A stretch of 64,000 nucleotides of DNA from Escherichia coli (GCF_036507355.1 NZ_AP027877.1), one strand, 5' to 3'. Positions 3,021 through 14,415 are shown, counted from the first letter of the stretch. Notes: generated by a model from the letters alone, not told the origin. Translations and numbers: made by a program.

Positions 3021-4628
3021 ATGCGTATTTCCTTGAAAAAGTCAGGGATGCTGAAGCTTGGTCTCAGCCTGGTGGCTATGACCGTCGCAGCAAGTGTTCA
3101 GGCTAAAACTCTGGTTTATTGCTCAGAAGGATCTCCGGAAGGGTTTAACCCGCAGCTGTTTACCTCCGGCACCACCTATGACGCCTCTTCCGTCCCGCTT
3201 TATAACCGTCTGGTTGAATTTAAAATCGGCACCACCGAAGTGATCCCGGGCCTCGCTGAAAAGTGGGAAGTCAGCGAAGACGGTAAAACCTATACCTTCC
3301 ATCTGCGTAAAGGTGTGAAGTGGCACGACAATAAAGAATTCAAACCGACGCGCGAAATGAACGCCGATGACGTGGTGTTCTCGTTTGATCGTCAGAAAAA
3401 CGCGCAAAACCCGTACCATAAAGTATCTGGCGGCAGCTACGAATACTTCGAAGGCATGGGCTTGCCAGAGCTGATCAGCGAAGTGAAAAAGGTGGACGAC
3501 AACACCGTTCAGTTTGTGCTGACTCGCCCGGAAGCGCCGTTCCTCGCTGACCTTGCAATGGACTTCGCCTCTATTCTGTCAAAAGAATATGCTGATGCGA
3601 TGATGAAAGCTGGTACACCGGAAAAACTGGACCTCAACCCAATCGGTACCGGTCCGTTCCAGTTACAGCAGTATCAAAAAGATTCCCGTATTCGCTACAA
3701 AGCGTTTGATGGCTACTGGGGCACCAAACCGCAGATCGATACGCTGGTCTTCTCTATTACCCCTGACGCTTCCGTGCGTTACGCTAAATTGCAGAAAAAT
3801 GAATGCCAGGTGATGCCGTACCCGAACCCGGCAGATATCGCTCGCATGAAGCAGGATAAATCCATCAATCTGATGGAAATGCCGGGGCTTAACGTCGGTT
3901 ATCTCTCGTATAACGTGCAGAAAAAACCACTCGATGACGTGAAAGTTCGCCAGGCTCTGACCTACGCGGTGAACAAAGATGCCATCATTAAAGCGGTTTA
4001 TCAGGGCGCGGGTGTATCAGCGAAAAACCTGATCCCGCCAACTATGTGGGGCTATAACGACGACGTTCAGGACTACACCTACGATCCTGAAAAAGCGAAA
4101 GCCTTGCTGAAAGAAGCGGGTCTGGAAAAAGGTTTCTCCATCGACCTGTGGGCGATGCCGGTACAACGTCCGTATAACCCGAACGCTCGCCGCATGGCGG
4201 AGATGATTCAGGCAGACTGGGCGAAAGTGGGCGTGCAGGCTAAAATCGTCACCTACGAATGGGGTGAGTACCTCAAGCGTGCGAAAGATGGCGAGCATCA
4301 GACGGTAATGATGGGCTGGACTGGCGATAACGGGGATCCGGATAACTTCTTCGCCACTCTGTTCAGCTGCGCCGCCTCTGAACAAGGCTCCAACTACTCA
4401 AAATGGTGCTACAAACCGTTTGAAGATCTGATTCAACCGGCGCGTGCTACCGACGACCATAACAAACGCGTTGAACTGTACAAGCAAGCGCAGGTGGTGA
4501 TGCACGATCAGGCTCCGGCACTGATCATCGCTCACTCCACCGTGTTTGAACCGGTACGCAAAGAAGTTAAAGGCTATGTGGTTGATCCATTAGGCAAACA
4601 TCACTTCGAAAACGTCTCTATCGAATAA
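3021..4628 (+). CDS. dppA: Dipeptide ABC transporter periplasmic binding protein
   Basis: 535 aa; signal peptide MRISLKKSGMLKLGLSLVAMTVAASVQA; family 5 substrate-binding protein. Confidence 0.95.
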   Translation: MRISLKKSGMLKLGLSLVAMTVAASVQAKTLVYCSEGSPEGFNPQLFTSGTTYDASSVPLYNRLVEFKIGTTEVIPGLAEKWEVSEDGKTYTFHLRKGVKWHDNKEFKPTREMNADDVVFSFDRQKNAQNPYHKVSGGSYEYFEGMGLPELISEVKKVDDNTVQFVLTRPEAPFLADLAMDFASILSKEYADAMMKAGTPEKLDLNPIGTGPFQLQQYQKDSRIRYKAFDGYWGTKPQIDTLVFSITPDASVRYAKLQKNECQVMPYPNPADIARMKQDKSINLMEMPGLNVGYLSYNVQKKPLDDVKVRQALTYAVNKDAIIKAVYQGAGVSAKNLIPPTMWGYNDDVQDYTYDPEKAKALLKEAGLEKGFSIDLWAMPVQRPYNPNARRMAEMIQADWAKVGVQAKIVTYEWGEYLKRAKDGEHQTVMMGWTGDNGDPDNFFATLFSCAASEQGSNYSKWCYKPFEDLIQPARATDDHNKRVELYKQAQVVMHDQAPALIIAHSTVFEPVRKEVKGYVVDPLGKHHFENVSIE

Positions 4629-4664
4629 TTAAAAGCCATACAAGACTGATGGCAAAGGCAAAAC

Positions 4665-4765
4665 TGCCTGATGCGCTCCGCTTATCAGGCCTACGAAAAT
4701 TCTGCAATGTATTGAGTTTGCACGATTTTGTAGGCAGGATAAGGCGTTAACGCCGCATCCGGCAT
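4665..4765. repeat. REP elements between dppA and dppB
   Basis: GCCTGATGCGCTCCGCTTATCAGGCCTAC and GTAGGCAGGATAAGGCGTTAACGCCGCATCCGGCAT. Confidence 0.75.
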
Positions 4766-4935
4766 AAACAAAGCGCTCTTTGTCAACAATCTGCATACCC
4801 GGTGGCGCTGTGCCTCTGCGTGCAGCGCCATCCGGCAGCAATACTTCATTCCCTGCCCGACCTGGGCGGGAATTGATTTGTGAGCAATACAGACACGCAG
4901 TTCCAGGCTGCGGGTCACTACAGAGAATCCGGGTT

Positions 4936-5955
4936 ATGTTGCAGTTTATTCTCCGACGTTTGGGACTCGTCATCCCCACGTTTATCGGTATTACCCTTCT
5001 CACATTTGCCTTTGTCCACATGATCCCGGGCGATCCGGTGATGATCATGGCGGGCGAGCGTGGGATCTCCCCAGAGCGTCACGCGCAGCTGCTGGCTGAA
5101 CTCGGCTTAGATAAACCGATGTGGCAGCAGTATCTCCATTACATTTGGGGCGTTATGCATGGCGATCTAGGCATTTCAATGAAAAGCCGCATCCCGGTTT
5201 GGGAAGAGTTCGTGCCGCGCTTTCAGGCCACGCTGGAACTTGGCGTCTGCGCGATGATTTTTGCTACGGCAGTCGGTATTCCGGTTGGTGTGCTGGCTGC
5301 GGTTAAACGCGGTTCCATTTTCGATCACACAGCGGTTGGCCTGGCGCTGACAGGTTATTCAATGCCTATCTTCTGGTGGGGAATGATGCTGATCATGCTG
5401 GTTTCGGTGCACTGGAACCTGACGCCCGTCTCCGGTCGTGTGAGTGACATGGTATTCCTCGATGATTCCAATCCGTTAACCGGTTTTATGCTGATCGACA
5501 CCGCCATCTGGGGTGAAGACGGCAACTTTATCGATGCCGTCGCCCATATGATCTTGCCCGCCATTGTGCTGGGTACCATCCCGCTGGCGGTCATTGTGCG
5601 TATGACGCGCTCCTCGATGCTGGAAGTGCTGGGTGAAGATTACATCCGCACCGCGCGCGCCAAAGGGTTGACCCGCATGCGGGTGATTATCGTCCATGCG
5701 CTGCGTAACGCGATGCTGCCGGTAGTGACCGTTATCGGCCTCCAGGTGGGAACATTGCTGGCGGGGGCGATTCTGACCGAAACCATCTTCTCGTGGCCCG
5801 GTCTGGGGCGCTGGTTGATTGACGCACTGCAACGCCGCGACTATCCGGTAGTGCAGGGCGGCGTATTGCTGGTGGCGACGATGATTATCCTCGTCAACCT
5901 GCTGGTCGATCTGCTGTACGGCGTGGTGAACCCGCGTATTCGTCATAAGAAGTAA
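4936..5955 (+). CDS. dppB: Dipeptide ABC transporter permease
   Basis: ORF 4780..5955 trimmed to ATG at 4936 (MLQFILRRLGLVIPTF), 339 aa. Confidence 0.9.
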   Translation: MLQFILRRLGLVIPTFIGITLLTFAFVHMIPGDPVMIMAGERGISPERHAQLLAELGLDKPMWQQYLHYIWGVMHGDLGISMKSRIPVWEEFVPRFQATLELGVCAMIFATAVGIPVGVLAAVKRGSIFDHTAVGLALTGYSMPIFWWGMMLIMLVSVHWNLTPVSGRVSDMVFLDDSNPLTGFMLIDTAIWGEDGNFIDAVAHMILPAIVLGTIPLAVIVRMTRSSMLEVLGEDYIRTARAKGLTRMRVIIVHALRNAMLPVVTVIGLQVGTLLAGAILTETIFSWPGLGRWLIDALQRRDYPVVQGGVLLVATMIILVNLLVDLLYGVVNPRIRHKK

Positions 5956-5964
5956 GGGGACATC

Positions 5965-6867
5965 ATGTCACAGGTTACTGAAAATAAAGTGATTAGCGCG
6001 CCGGTACCGATGACCCCTTTACAGGAGTTCTGGCACTATTTTAAACGCAACAAAGGCGCGGTCGTCGGGTTGGTTTACGTCGTCATCGTGCTGTTTATCG
6101 CGATCTTTGCCAACTGGATTGCGCCGTATAACCCGGCGGAACAGTTCCGCGATGCACTGCTCGCCCCGCCAGCCTGGCAGGAAGGCGGCAGCATGGCGCA
6201 CTTGCTGGGCACCGATGACGTAGGCCGTGATGTGCTGTCGCGGCTGATGTACGGCGCGCGCTTGTCGCTGCTGGTTGGCTGTCTGGTGGTGGTGTTATCG
6301 CTGATTATGGGCGTTATTCTCGGCCTGATCGCCGGTTACTTCGGCGGCCTGGTCGATAACATCATCATGCGCGTGGTCGATATCATGCTGGCGCTGCCAA
6401 GTCTGCTGTTGGCACTGGTGCTGGTGGCGATTTTCGGCCCGTCGATTGGTAACGCCGCGCTGGCGCTGACCTTTGTTGCCTTGCCGCACTATGTGCGCTT
6501 AACCCGCGCCGCCGTGCTGGTGGAAGTTAACCGCGATTACGTTACCGCGTCTCGCGTGGCAGGTGCCGGGGCGATGCGTCAGATGTTTATTAACATCTTC
6601 CCGAACTGCCTTGCGCCTCTGATTGTTCAGGCGTCGCTCGGTTTCTCTAACGCCATTCTCGATATGGCTGCTCTTGGTTTCCTCGGCATGGGGGCGCAGC
6701 CGCCAACACCAGAGTGGGGCACCATGCTCTCTGACGTGTTGCAGTTCGCGCAAAGCGCCTGGTGGGTCGTGACCTTCCCTGGTCTGGCGATCCTGCTGAC
6801 GGTGCTGGCATTTAACCTGATGGGTGACGGTCTGCGTGACGCGCTCGATCCCAAACTGAAGCAGTAA
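5965..6867 (+). CDS. dppC: Dipeptide ABC transporter permease
   Basis: 300 aa; polytopic membrane protein of the ABC permease family. Confidence 0.9.
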
Positions 6868-6877
6868 GAGGTTCGAG

Positions 6878-7861
6878 ATGGCGTTATTAAATGTAGATAA
6901 ATTATCGGTGCATTTCGGCGACGAAAGCGCACCGTTCCGCGCCGTAGACCGCATCAGCTACAGCGTGAAACAGGGCGAAGTGGTCGGGATTGTGGGTGAG
7001 TCCGGCTCTGGTAAGTCGGTCAGTTCACTGGCGATTATGGGGCTGATTGATTATCCGGGCCGCGTGATGGCGGAAAAGCTGGAGTTTAACGGTCAGGATT
7101 TGCAGCGTATCTCAGAAAAAGAGCGCCGCAATCTGGTGGGTGCCGAAGTGGCGATGATCTTCCAGGACCCGATGACCAGCCTTAACCCGTGCTACACCGT
7201 TGGTTTCCAGATTATGGAAGCGATTAAGGTGCATCAGGGCGGTAATAAGAGCACTCGCCGTCAGCGGGCGATTGACCTGCTGAATCAGGTCGGTATTCCC
7301 GATCCGGCATCGCGTCTGGATGTTTACCCGCATCAGCTTTCCGGCGGCATGAGCCAGCGCGTGATGATCGCCATGGCGATTGCCTGTCGGCCAAAACTGC
7401 TGATTGCCGATGAACCGACCACTGCGCTGGACGTGACCATTCAGGCGCAAATCATCGAACTACTGCTGGAGCTACAGCAGAAAGAGAACATGGCGCTGGT
7501 GTTAATTACCCATGACCTGGCGCTGGTGGCGGAAGCGGCACATAAAATCATCGTGATGTATGCCGGTCAGGTGGTGGAAACGGGCGATGCGCACGCCATC
7601 TTCCATGCGCCGCGTCACCCGTATACTCAGGCATTGCTGCGTGCGCTGCCGGAATTTGCTCAGGACAAAGAACGTCTGGCATCGTTGCCTGGCGTTGTTC
7701 CCGGCAAGTACGACCGCCCGAACGGCTGCCTGCTTAACCCGCGCTGCCCCTATGCCACTGACAGATGTCGCGCTGAAGAACCGGCGCTGAATATGCTCGC
7801 TGACGGGCGTCAGTCCAAATGCCATTACCCACTTGATGATGCCGGGAGGCCGACACTATGA
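6878..7861 (+). CDS. dppD: Dipeptide ABC transporter ATP-binding protein
   Basis: 327 aa; Walker A GESGSGKS, signature LSGGMSQR; 4-bp overlap with dppF. Confidence 0.9.
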
Positions 7862-10163: not shown

Positions 10164-10521
10164 AAAGTCCTGTCCAGAAAGAAGTCGGCCTCGCAAAAAT
10201 GAATAAACCCAGTTTCTCTTGCGCAACAGGTGGAGAAGTCGAATACGCAGTATGTAAAAAATGAGGCAACAGATTCACTGGGGAGGTCGCGAGGAGGCGC
10301 AATTCTACAAAATTGCGCATTTCACTACCAGTCTGGAGTCAGCCCGGATATGAACTGCAACTATTGCAAATTAAGAAATTAAGCTGGAAGGCATCACGCA
10401 ATGAGGAAGATTGCCGGGTGCTGACAGTAAAAAGCAATCGTAAAATTAGCGGCAAGCCGGAAGGGTTCCGGTGAGGCGCAATGTTGCGGGGGCTTAATCC
10501 CTGGTGGCATTGGTTGCTGGA

Positions 10522-10590
10522 GAGAGAAAACCCCCGCACGTTGCAGGTATGCACCTGACAACACCACGGGGGCTAATCTTGAACCTAGAC
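10522..10590 (-). ncRNA. rdlD: Rdl antisense sRNA (antitoxin of the ldrD type I toxin-antitoxin pair)
   Basis: Minus strand reads GTCTAGGTTCAAGATTAGCCCCCGTGGTGTTGTCAGGTGCATACCTGCAACGTGCGGGGGTTTTCTCTC with a terminal hairpin and U-run, about 50 nt upstream of ldrD on the opposite strand. Confidence 0.6.
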
Positions 10591-10638
10591 CACTCAAGAA
10601 TAGCCGCGAAACGTTGTCATTACAACACAGGCGGCTAT

Positions 10639-10746
10639 ATGACGCTCGCAGAACTGGGCATGGCCTTCTGGCATGATTTAGCGGCTCCGGTCATTGCTGG
10701 CATTCTTGCCAGTATGATCGTGAACTGGCTGAACAAGCGGAAGTAA
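10639..10746 (+). CDS. ldrD: Type I toxin LdrD, 35-aa membrane peptide
   Basis: [35 protein letters not shown] at the 3' end of track ORF 10504..10746. Confidence 0.85.
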
Positions 10747-10749
10747 CGT

Positions 10750-10961
10750 GTCATGCGGGCGTCAGGCTGCCCTTTTTACAAAACCGCGATGCGCAGGCCG
10801 TTCAGCGCCAGCGCGTGGCCGATAACTTTCCCGGCAGCGATGCCTATTACAACTATGTGCTGACCCTGTTTGGACAAGGCTGGGATCAACACCGTTTCCG
10901 CTTCTCGACAAAAGGTGAGTTATTACCTGACTGGGGCCAGGAATGCGCAAATTCACACTAA
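10750..10961 (+). pseudogene. bcsZ: 3' remnant (about 70 codons) of endoglucanase bcsZ, lacking 5' portion and start
   Basis: Frame ending TAA 10959-10961 encodes ...[64 protein letters not shown], overlapping the bcsC start in the usual bcsZ-bcsC manner; nothing upstream except ldrD. Confidence 0.6.
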
Positions 10962-13900
10962 ACATATTCACGCTTTCCCTCGGTCTGGCCGTCATGCCGA
11001 TGGTCGAGGCAGCACCAACCGCTCAGCAACAGTTGCTGGAGCAAGTTCGGTTAGGCGAAGCGACCCATCGTGAAGACCTGGTACAGCAGTCGTTGTATCG
11101 GCTGGAACTTATTGATCCGAATAACCCGGACGTCGTTGCCGCCCGTTTCCGTTCTTTGTTACGTCAGGGCGATATTGATGGCGCGCAAAAACAGCTCGAT
11201 CGGCTGTCGCAGTTAGCGCCGAGTTCAAATGCGTATAAATCGTCGCGGACTACGATGCTGCTTTCCACGCCAGATGGTCGTCAGGCACTGCAACAGGCAA
11301 GATTGCAGGCGACGACTGGTCATGCAGAAGAAGCTGTGGCGAGTTACAACAAACTGTTCAACGGTGCGCCGCCGGAAGGTGACATTGCCGTCGAGTACTG
11401 GAGTACGGTGGCGAAAATTCCGGCTCGCCGTGGCGAAGCGATTAATCAGCTAAAACGCATTAATGCGGATGCACCGGGCAATACGGGCCTGCAAAACAAT
11501 CTGGCGCTATTGCTGTTTAGTAGCGATCGCCGTGACGAAGGTTTTGCCGTCCTGGAACAGATGGCGAAATCGAACGCCGGGCGCGAAGGGGCCTCTAAAA
11601 TCTGGTACGGGCAGATTAAAGACATGCCCGCAGCGATGCCAGCGTGCAGGCGCTGAAAAAATATCTTTCGATCTTTAGTGATGGTGATAGCGTGGCGGCT
11701 GCGCAATCGCAACTGGCAGAACAGCAAAAACAGCTGGCCGATCCTGCTTTCCGCGCTCGTGCGCAAGGTTTAGCGGCGGTGGACTCTGGTATGGCGGGTA
11801 AAGCCATTCCCGAACTACAACAGGCAGTGCGGGCGAACCCGAAAGACAGTGAGGCTCTGGGGGCGCTGGGCCAGGCATATTCACAGAAAGGCGATCGCGC
11901 CAATGCAGTGGCGAATCTGGAAAAAGCCCTCGCACTGGATCCGCACAGCAGCAACAACGACAAATGGAACAGTCTGCTGAAAGTAAACCGCTACTGGCTG
12001 GCAATCCAGCAGGGCGATGCTGCGCTGAAAGCCAATAATCCTGACCGGGCAGAACGCCTGTTCCAGCAGGCGCGTAATGTCGATAACACCGACAGTTATG
12101 CAGTGCTGGGGCTGGGCGATGTGGCGATGGCGCGAAAAGATTATCCCGCCGCCGAACGTTATTATCAGCAGACCTTGCGTATGGACAGCGGCAACACTAA
12201 CGCCGTGCGCGGGCTGGCAAATATTTACCGCCAGCAATCGCCAGAAAAAGCTGAAGCGTTTATCGCCTCGCTCTCTGCCAGTCAGCGACGTAGCATTGAT
12301 GATATCGAACGCAGCCTGCAAAACGACCGTCTGGCACAGCAGGCAGAGGCACTGGAAAACCAGGGCAAATGGGCGCAGGCGGCAGCACTTCAGCGGCAAC
12401 GACTGGCGCTGGACCCCGGCAGCGTATGGATTACTTACCGACTTTCGCAGGATCTCTGGCAGGCCGGACAACGCAGCCAGGCCGATACGTTAATGCGCAA
12501 TCTGGCGCAGCAGAAGCCGAACGACCCGGAGCAGGTTTACGCTTACGGGCTGTACCTCTCTGGTCATGACCAGGACAGAGCGGCGCTGGCGCATATCAAC
12601 AGCCTGCCGCGTGCGCAGTGGAGCAGCAATATTCAGGAGCTGGTTAATCGACTGCAAAGCGATCAGGTGCTGGAAACCGCTAATCGCCTGCGAGAAAGCG
12701 GCAAAGAAGCTGAAGCGGAAGCGATGCTGCGTCAGCAACCACCTTCCACGCGTATTGACCTCACGCTGGCTGACTGGGCGCAGCAGCGACGTGATTACAC
12801 CGCCGCCCGCGCTGCATATCAGAATGTCCTGACGCGGGAGCCAACTAACGCCGATGCCATTCTGGGGCTGTCGGAAGTGGATATTGCTGCCAGTGACAAA
12901 GCGGCGGCACGTAGCCAGCTGGCGAAACTGCCCGCTACCGATAACGCCTCACTGAACACACAGCGGCGCGTGGCGCTGGCGCAGGCGCAGCTTGGAAATA
13001 CCGCAGCGGCGCAGCAGACGTTTAATAAGTTGATCCCGCAGGCAAAATCTCAGCCACCGTCGATGGAAAGCGCGATGGTGCTGCGCGACGGTGCGAAGTT
13101 TGAAGCGCAGGCGGGCGATCCAAAGCAGGCGCTGGAAACCTACAAAGACGCCATGGTCGCATCCGGTGTGACTACGACGCGTCCGCAGGATAACGACACC
13201 TTTACCCGACTGACCCGTAACGACGAGAAAGATGACTGGCTGAAACGCGGCGTGCGCAGCGATGCGGCGGACCTCTATCGCCAGCAGGATCTTAACGTCA
13301 CCCTCGAGCATGATTACTGGGGTTCGAGCGGCACCGGTGGTTACTCCGATCTGAAAGCGCATACTACCATGTTGCAGGTGGATGCTCCGTATTCTGACGG
13401 GCGGATGTTCTTTCGCAGTGATTTCGTCAATATGAACGTCGGCAGTTTCTCCACTAATGCCGATGGCAAATGGGATGACAACTGGGGCACCTGTACATTA
13501 CAGGACTGTAGCGGCAACCGCAGCCAGTCGGATTCCGGTGCCAGCGTGGCGGTCGGCTGGCGAAATGACGTCTGGAGCTGGGATATCGGCACCACGCCGA
13601 TGGGCTTCAACGTGGTGGATGTGGTCGGCGGCATCAGTTACAGCGATGATATCGGGCCGCTGGGTTACACCGTTAACGCCCACCGTCGGCCCATCTCCAG
13701 TTCTTTGCTGGCCTTTGGTGGGCAAAAAGACTCCCCGAGCAATACCGGGAAAAAATGGGGCGGCGTGCGTGCCGACGGCGTGGGGCTAAGCCTGAGCTAC
13801 GATAAAGGTGAAGCAAACGGCGTCTGGGCATCGCTTAGCGGCGACCAGTTAACCGGTAAAAATGTCGAAGATAACTGGCGTGTGCGCTGGATGACGGGCT

Positions 13901-14415
13901 ATTACTATAAGGTCATCAACCAGAACAATCGCCGCGTCACAATCGGCCTGAACAACATGATCTGGCATTACGACAAAGACCTGAGTGGCTACTCACTCGG
14001 TCAGGGCGGTTACTACAGTCCGCAGGAATACCTGTCGTTTGCCATACCGGTGATGTGGCGGGAGCGCACGGAAAACTGGTCGTGGGAGCTGGGGGCGTCT
14101 GGCTCGTGGTCGCATTCGCGCACCAAAACCATGCCGCGGTATCCGCTGATGAATCTGATCCCGACTGACTGGCAGGAAGAAGCTGCGCGGCAATCCAACG
14201 ATGGCGGCAGCAGTCAGGGCTTTGGCTATACGGCGCGGGCATTACTTGAGCGTCGCGTCACATCCAACTGGTTTGTTGGCACGGCAATTGATATCCAGCA
14301 GGCGAAAGATTACGCGCCCAGCCATTTCCTGCTCTATGTACGTTATTCCGCCGCTGGATGGCAGGGTGACATGGATTTACCGCCGCAGCCGCTGATACCT
14401 TACGCCGACTGGTAA
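10943..14415 (+). pseudogene. bcsC: Cellulose synthase outer-membrane subunit BcsC (TPR protein), disrupted by a -1 frameshift near 11630
   Basis: Two consecutive ORFs (10943..11656, 237 aa; 11644..14415, 923 aa) in different frames; total span 3473 nt is not a multiple of 3; frame 1 hits a stop at 11654-11656 while frame 2 continues SDASVQALKKYLSIF. Confidence 0.8.

Follow-up and report, generated by a model that had tools for sequence, protein, structure and literature searches.

Two deletions in a 64,000-nucleotide stretch of Escherichia coli DNA, called the window in this text, each end beside a type I toxin-antitoxin (TA) locus. The first deletion removes most of the bcs (cellulose) operon next to ldrD/rdlD, and the second removes arsRB next to agr/dinQ. 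We consider it likely that these are two unrelated, ordinary gene-loss events, that their adjacency to the TA loci comes from gene order, and that the TA loci are not barriers to deletion. The gene order at the first site is yhjV-ldrD-bcsG, with a gap of 86 bp between ldrD and bcsG. The K-12 order at the second site is dinQ-agrA-agrB-arsR, and agrB ends 153 bp before the ATG of arsR. Since ldrD neighbours bcsG and agrB neighbours arsR, a deletion that takes either of these dispensable operons to its boundary has a TA locus next to its endpoint; in particular, a loss of arsR together with its promoter necessarily places the endpoint within ~150 bp of agrB. Two of the four deletion endpoints lie within ~110 bp of the only two type I TA loci of the window, which would happen with an estimated probability of 0.2-1%; this estimate is post hoc, and the figure is accounted for largely by the fixed gene order of E. 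coli.

The original prediction noted the two deletions next to the TA loci and allowed for coincidence, for selection against the loss of antitoxin RNAs, or for a recombination-prone structure. Both deletions proved to be real and free of insertion sequences (IS), and they do lie beside ldrD and agr. The coincidence reading fits best, given the gene order and the widely varying endpoints of comparable deletions in other genomes. The ldrD/rdlD and dinQ/agr loci, arsRB loss and microhomology deletions are all already known; what is new is solely a bcs deletion allele, private to the window, whose breakpoints recur elsewhere.

The window contains, in this order, dpp, yhjV, ldrD/rdlD, the bcs deletion, bcsC, hmsP, the gad/hde/mdt acid island with GadY, chu, arsC, the arsRB deletion, agr/dinQ, and gor. 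The nearest complete RefSeq genomes are ~99.1-99.6% identical to it in places. Apart from the TA loci, the following Rfam matches were found:

2200-2273, tRNA
2370-2451, naRNA4
4687-4729, ES036
37338-37451, GadY
43230-43301, ES205
52974-53005, shuA/chuA 5'UTR thermometer

The last of them points to a lineage with chu, of the phylogroup B2, D, E or F type.

The features at and around the bcs deletion are as follows:

10453-10771, plus strand, LDR-D repeat unit, which has lost its 3' end to the bcs deletion (homology to K-12 ldrA/B/C)
10525-10590, minus strand, rdlD antisense antitoxin sRNA (Rfam RF01813, 89.2 bits against a gathering score of 50)
10639-10746, plus strand, ldrD toxin ORF of 35 aa (translation; the identical protein is annotated as Ldr toxin, PF13940, in many contigs)
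10756-10771, plus strand, retained 5' arm of the conserved LDR 3'UTR hairpin, CGGGCGTCAGGCTGCC (alignment of the ldrA/B/C/D 3' flanks; folding of L007 11255-11350)
10757-10777, plus strand, junction-born terminator-like hairpin with T5, GGGCGTCAGGCTGCCC TTTTT (terminator scan)
10766-10771, strandless, bcs deletion junction with the 6-bp microhomology GCTGCC (junction alignments)
10772-10961, plus strand, 190-bp 3' remnant of bcsZ (right homology starts at L007 21887; bcsZ ends at L007 22076)
10943-14415, plus strand, bcsC pseudogene (ORF list and global alignment to L007 bcsC)

Alignment to the intact E. coli reference strain 133 (L001/L007; coordinates marked L007 belong to it, and the window-to-L007 offset in the left flank is 514) gives a loss of 10,601 bp, L007 11286-21886. 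The deletion took bcsG, bcsF, bcsE, bcsR, bcsQ, bcsA, bcsB and the first 917 bp of bcsZ. The motif GCTGCC is present at both ends of this segment in the reference (L007 11280-11285 and 21881-21886), and 9 of 11 bases match if the microhomology is extended. No trace of an IS, whether element sequence, inverted-repeat remnant or target-site duplication, is left at either junction of the window. The bcs junction thus fits the signature of a microhomology-mediated illegitimate deletion, that is, an IS-free junction with one copy of a short direct repeat. Judging from the junction, the deletion would have arisen by replication slippage or by microhomology end-joining. Short-homology deletions in E. 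coli are known to arise by slippage or by RecA-independent alternative end-joining. The window shares with such deletions the single retained copy of a 6-bp repeat and the IS-free junction, and its sibling events have 0-10 bp of microhomology; it differs in that both of its breakpoints recur exactly elsewhere, contrary to a simple random model.

The ldrD stop codon TAA occupies positions 10744-10746, and the junction lies 20-25 bp beyond it, inside the ldrD 3'UTR. The distance of 1-10 bp suggested originally was therefore too short, and the deletion cuts into the ldrD 3'UTR. What remains has the main traits of the LDR-D locus (Kawano et al. 2002; reviewed in PMC4147584): a hydrophobic 35-aa LdrD toxin ORF, a cis-antisense RdlD sRNA upstream of the ORF over the ldr 5'UTR, and a position between yhjV and bcs. 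The difference lies in the 3'UTR, which is cut short, and in the native terminator, which is swapped for a weak junction-born hairpin with T5. In the intact reference, LDR-D homology to K-12 ldrA/B/C spans L007 10967-11348 and so ends 63 bp past the breakpoint of the window. In the window this homology stops at 10771, and the complete unit with the conserved 3'UTR hairpin and the intrinsic terminator is thereby lacking. The 3'UTR hairpin is conserved in ldrA, ldrB, ldrC and ldrD. Its intact form reads CGGGCGTCAGGCTGCC/GTAATGGCAATTTGCGCCCG, where the slash marks the breakpoint, and the deletion takes the 3' half of it along with the whole ldrD terminator. RNA folding predicts for the junction-born hairpin a 5-bp stem of -7.7 kcal/mol; the native 3'UTR reaches -38.4. 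As modelled, this hairpin with its T5 may stand in for the deleted terminator.

To the right of the junction, bcsC is the sole remaining bcs gene, an orphan of the lost cellulose operon that is itself decaying. Near 11630 it lacks 1 bp, and the resulting frameshift leaves two ORFs, of 237 and 923 aa. This decay would have followed the bcs deletion. The bcs junction of the window is absent from all 5,426 complete E. coli genomes searched, and the event is a private and probably recent illegitimate deletion.

The number of ldr copies at this site varies. The window has one copy, and other E. coli genomes have from one to four in tandem. The yhjV-bcsG gap of seven other loci (L033, L035-L040, at about 4500-7600) holds two to four tandem ldr copies with a spacing of 483 bp, and K-12, like the window, has one; LDR-D is thus a copy-number-variable array. 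A survey of LdrD-encoding contigs for unusual contexts found only intact contexts and tandem ldr arrays.

The second deletion is described by three features:

60740-61165, minus strand, arsC, intact, the only ars gene left (ORF list; arsC annotation in syntenic genomes)
61178-61226, minus strand, 49-bp 3' remnant of arsB (alignment to O157 L003 2266-2314 and K-12)
61227-61228, strandless, arsRB junction, two nucleotides (CA) unmatched by either flank (junction alignment)

Compared with O157 (L003) and K-12 (L021), 1,686 bp are missing, namely arsR, 38 bp upstream of arsR, and arsB except for its last 49 bp. The 49-bp remnant of arsB shows that the genes were lost and not absent ancestrally. 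To the right of the junction, homology picks up again 39 bp before the arsR start codon. This junction (61226/61229) has no clear microhomology: the ends share 0-1 bp, and 2 nt of filler lie between them. Microhomology, which the original prediction had named as something to look for at the junctions, is thus found at the bcs junction (6 bp, GCTGCC) and not at the ars junction. The distance from the arsRB junction to the 3' end of the agr sRNA is 113 bp and that to the first 33-nt repeat is 166 bp; the deletion was correctly placed near agr, and the ~100 bp proposed for its distance from the agr/dinQ repeats was an underestimate.

The same arsRB junction, ACAAACCAAAGCGGA, occurs in a deer isolate (L004) and in the B2 strains L005 and L006, with flanks diverged by ~6%. 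It is spanned in ~1,106 of the 5,426 genomes (~20%), and arsRBC is intact in 4,109. The arsC-only arrangement is a published trait of phylogroup B2 and also of some phylogroup E strains (Sütterlin et al. 2018, PMC5923176). Judged by its junction sequence, the arsRB deletion is one old event, the B2-type arsC-only allele, which would have been inherited by descent or spread through recombination. The window shares with this allele the absence of arsR and arsB, the retention of arsC between gor and slp, and a junction identical to that of L005 and L006. It differs in its flanks, which are ~6% off those of the B2 genomes and match the deer isolate best (99.1%). Being one old allele, the arsRB junction gives no evidence that endpoints recurrently stop at agr/dinQ. 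A minority of genomes (H178, H179; L030 9-305) have an extra regulator of the ArsR/SmtB family and ars genes apart from agr/dinQ. This context is probably the arsRDABC variant described for ST69.

The agr/dinQ locus next to this junction comprises the following features:

61341-61425, minus strand, agr sRNA gene, a hybrid of agrB and agrA whose antisense segment is agrB-like (Rfam RF02891, 92.2 bits; alignment to the K-12 agrA/agrB units)
61394-61426, strandless, 33-nt direct repeat, copy 1, at the agr 5' end (repeat family D1)
61489-61508, plus strand, dinQ LexA operator/promoter region, TACTGTATGATTATCCAGTT (sequence reading; operator described in PMC3567139)
61593-61625, strandless, 33-nt direct repeat, copy 2, in the dinQ leader, the agr antisense pairing target (repeat family D1)
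61669-61682, strandless, inverted core GCATTCTCACTCCA, complementary to 61402-61415 and 61602-61614 (repeats I2 and I3)
61700-61783, plus strand, dinQ toxin ORF of 27 aa, VIDKAIIVLGALIALLELILFLLQLLN followed by the stop (translation; dinQ annotation in syntenic genomes)

By its sequence, the locus belongs with dinQ/agrAB (2013, PMC3567139; Kristiansen et al. 2016, PMC5066626). It has the 27-aa DinQ ORF behind a predicted LexA-regulated promoter with the LexA operator, an agr 5' end antisense to the dinQ leader, and inverted cores that permit alternative dinQ mRNA structures. The 33-nt repeat and the inverted core match the agr:dinQ antisense target and the alternative pairings of the dinQ leader described in these two papers (PMC3567139, PMC5066626). 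The differences are that a single agr gene takes the place of agrA and agrB in the window, and that arsR no longer flanks the locus. No second AgrB-type gene was found in the window at E<=1, and agr is a single copy. A 231-bp unit of K-12 and O157 is missing from the agr region, which leaves the window without the agrA and agrB pair. The tandem duplication of ~200 bp seen in the region originally is therefore not a duplication of agr. It corresponds to the two 33-nt repeats, which are 199 bp apart and 94% identical (the agr copy matches the dinQ leader repeat at 31 of 33 nt), and the inverted core of 13-14 nt was described correctly.

Strain 99E2750 (L030), in which arsRBC is intact, has the same single-agr layout as the window. 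The loss of the agr unit is thus independent of the arsRB deletion. In ~827 genomes the 199 bp between the 33-nt repeats are deleted, which removes the promoters of agr and of dinQ (L005 3693-3725; window 61394-61625); genomes lacking both promoters make up ~15% of the 5,426. Where this segment is gone, the TA locus is probably dead, despite the dinQ annotation. The window keeps the 199-bp segment, unlike most carriers of the B2-type arsC-only allele. As a side observation, the 199-bp deletion is present in most arsRB-deletion carriers, mainly in B2-like genomes. In strain EC24.26 (NZ_CM186189.1, H192), the sole match to an arsC-arsR-agr-dinQ-gor query is a spurious one of 38 bp at the aga locus; the whole ars-dinQ region, agr/dinQ included, may be deleted in this strain.

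Both TA loci are internally recombinogenic: LDR-D occurs in 1-4 copies, and agr in one or two copies and in a variant with the 199-bp deletion. These homology-driven changes inside the TA loci are not the mechanism of the two deletions of the window.

To compare the bcs deletion with others, we used the 12-kb junction region of the window as a query; joined matches to it arise only from genomes with large bcs deletions. Among the matches listed there are 60 records, 50 of which cover >=80% of the query, and roughly 36 distinct events by span. Besides that of the window, 21 independent bcs deletions were mapped, 12 of them clean and nine with IS1 at the junction. Their left endpoints range from the inside of yhjV (L007 9958) to the inside of bcsE (14315), and their right endpoints from bcsQ (15530) to the end of bcsC (25351). 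The other 12 clean junctions have 0-10 bp of microhomology and are of the same class as that of the window. Both ldrD and rdlD are gone in seven of the 21 (CAVP773, GN25 and PEB20-37 with IS1; GPT21-003, PK5, ZF34 and BEN2908 clean), and ldrD is truncated in one more, 81EVA. The idea that breakpoints stop recurrently at ldr/rdl is not borne out by these 21 deletions, which vary widely in their ends and hit LDR-D in eight cases (seven whole losses and one truncation). Both outcomes that the original prediction named as refuting it, variable endpoints and strains whose deletions take the TA loci along, are observed.

The resulting catalogue holds at least 22 independent bcs (cellulose) deletions including that of the window, with IS1 in nine and with two breakpoints that recur exactly. 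The IS1-junction deletions are among loci L002, L009, L013, L016, L022, L023, L025 and L028. A literature search returned no earlier report of an ldrD/bcsG deletion junction or of an IS1-bcs deletion junction in E. coli. Exact-pattern scans of genome and metagenome contigs for an altered ldrD or ldrA/B/C flank and for the ars junction gave 0 matches and were uninformative.

The main competitor of the gene-order explanation is a fragile site. According to it, the hairpin in the gap between the convergently transcribed ldrD (rightward) and bcsG (leftward) stalls replication or draws breaks, and deletions start at its loop. We regard this as unlikely, although it has a basis in the breakpoints themselves. 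The left breakpoint of the window (L007 11285, GGCTGCC/GTAAT), at the 5' edge of the predicted LDR hairpin loop, is identical to that of ZYS9073 (L010), whose deletion ends elsewhere on the right (22469) and has 1 bp of microhomology. The right breakpoint (21886/21887) is shared exactly with LR-21-1 (L008), where the deletion begins on the left within bcsG. The three strains are unrelated, with 154 and 121 SNPs over the 4.5 kb of the left flank and five in its last 300 bp. A simulation with uniform endpoints gave P ~0.018-0.057 for a coincidence on both sides and P ~0.006-0.02 for both in the same event, that is, ~0.6-6% for the double coincidence. In addition, 81EVA has a clean end at -13 bp relative to the ldrD stop, the clean deletion of BEN2908 stops at the 3' end of rdlD, an IS1 is located at the ldrD terminator in one case, and the conservation of the hairpin across ldrA, ldrB, ldrC and ldrD also speaks for such a site.

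Two ways in which the shared breakpoints could have a common origin were considered and rejected. The spread of one deletion allele by recombination is ruled out by the 121-154 SNPs over 4.5 kb of the flank and by five SNPs within 300 bp of the junction. A crossover between the LR-21-1 and ZYS9073 alleles does not explain the window either, since no such crossover yields its junction.

Against a fragile site stands the lack of a general association with hairpins. Across 26 clean breakpoints, eight fell in or at loops of stems >=4 bp against 5.4 expected (P=0.15); loops of stems >=5 bp held two of the 26 (P=0.54), and those of stems >=6 bp held none of the 26. The DNA fold of the region is unexceptional (z = -1.7). 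The right breakpoint of the window recurs just as exactly as the left one without a comparable hairpin apex. Five of the 13 clean left ends lie inside the 382-bp LDR-D unit, with a nominal P of ~0.01-0.04 in a sample enriched for events lacking bcsG; once ~15 further events that end in bcsG or bcsE are counted (~35 in total), the estimated P is ~0.16, and the LDR-D enrichment is no longer significant. The enrichment thus disappears after correction for the choice of mapped events. A fragile site at ldrD also has no bearing on the ars junction, a single event 113 bp from agr. The recombination-prone structure proposed originally retains limited support, from the copy-number variation of the TA loci driven by their internal repeats and from the exact recurrence of the left breakpoint in an unrelated lineage; a general effect of hairpins is not significant (P=0.15).

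Three of the four distinct breakpoint sites are located immediately 3' of CTGCC. It is quite doubtful that the LDR 3' end (the edge of the hairpin loop, possibly together with sites 3' of CTGCC) is a true hotspot of RecA-independent deletion. If it were, a type I TA repeat in natural E. coli would time and again trigger loss of the cellulose operon beside it, and the deletion of the window would be one of several independent events that used the same two breakpoints. The recurrence, if upheld in a larger survey, would provide a natural, sequence-defined hotspot for studying illegitimate recombination.

The explanation by gene order also has to be compared with a protective role of the TA loci. 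In this scenario the loss of the antitoxin RNA, or of the whole locus with toxin mRNA persisting, kills the cell, and the surviving deletions pile up at the TA borders. TA loci reportedly stabilise neighbouring DNA against deletion. Such protection has been reported for other systems, for example on plasmids (PMC6354349), and the window resembles those stabilisers in having a TA locus at the border of a deleted segment. The ldrD mRNA is described as stable, with Rdl as its antitoxin (review PMC4147584), and both loci are nearly universal: LDR-D is intact at its site in 5,394 of 5,426 genomes (not intact in 32), and agr/dinQ is present in 5,422 of 5,426. We nevertheless find a protective role very improbable. 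The defining feature of such stabilisers, a depletion of deletions that span the TA locus, fails in E. coli here: at least seven independent deletions remove ldrD and rdlD, and one truncates ldrD. The agr and dinQ promoters are missing from ~15% of genomes, and agrB and agrAB knockouts are viable (PMC3567139). Seen from bcs, rdlD is on the far side of the ldrD ORF. A deletion that enters from bcs thus reaches the toxin gene before the antitoxin, and no deletion from this side removes the antitoxin while leaving the toxin. The deletion of the window itself damages the ldrD transcript instead of stopping short of it. Selection against antitoxin loss, one of the readings proposed at the outset, is accordingly contradicted by the seven whole LDR-D losses, the ~827 agr/dinQ promoter deletions and the viable agrB knockouts. 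Natural E. coli tolerate the loss of LDR-D and of the agr/dinQ promoters, and these loci are not effective guardians against deletion. A partial killing upon loss of a whole locus may occur and is compatible with the presence/absence data.

An origin of both deletions through IS elements that were later lost is hardly credible: nine of the 21 other mapped bcs deletions do carry IS1 at the junction, one of them 84 bp after ldrD, but the window junctions have no IS sequence, inverted-repeat remnant or target-site duplication, and the bcs ends are simply joined at one copy of the microhomology.

E. coli isolates from livestock and humans have repeatedly lost cellulose genes. The right endpoints of five independent events (L015, L024, L028, L029 and L025) fall in L007 20766-20968, at the end of bcsB. 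They lie within ~200 bp upstream of the bcsZ start and leave bcsZ and bcsC intact. These endpoints may represent a second cluster or selection that keeps bcsZ and bcsC.
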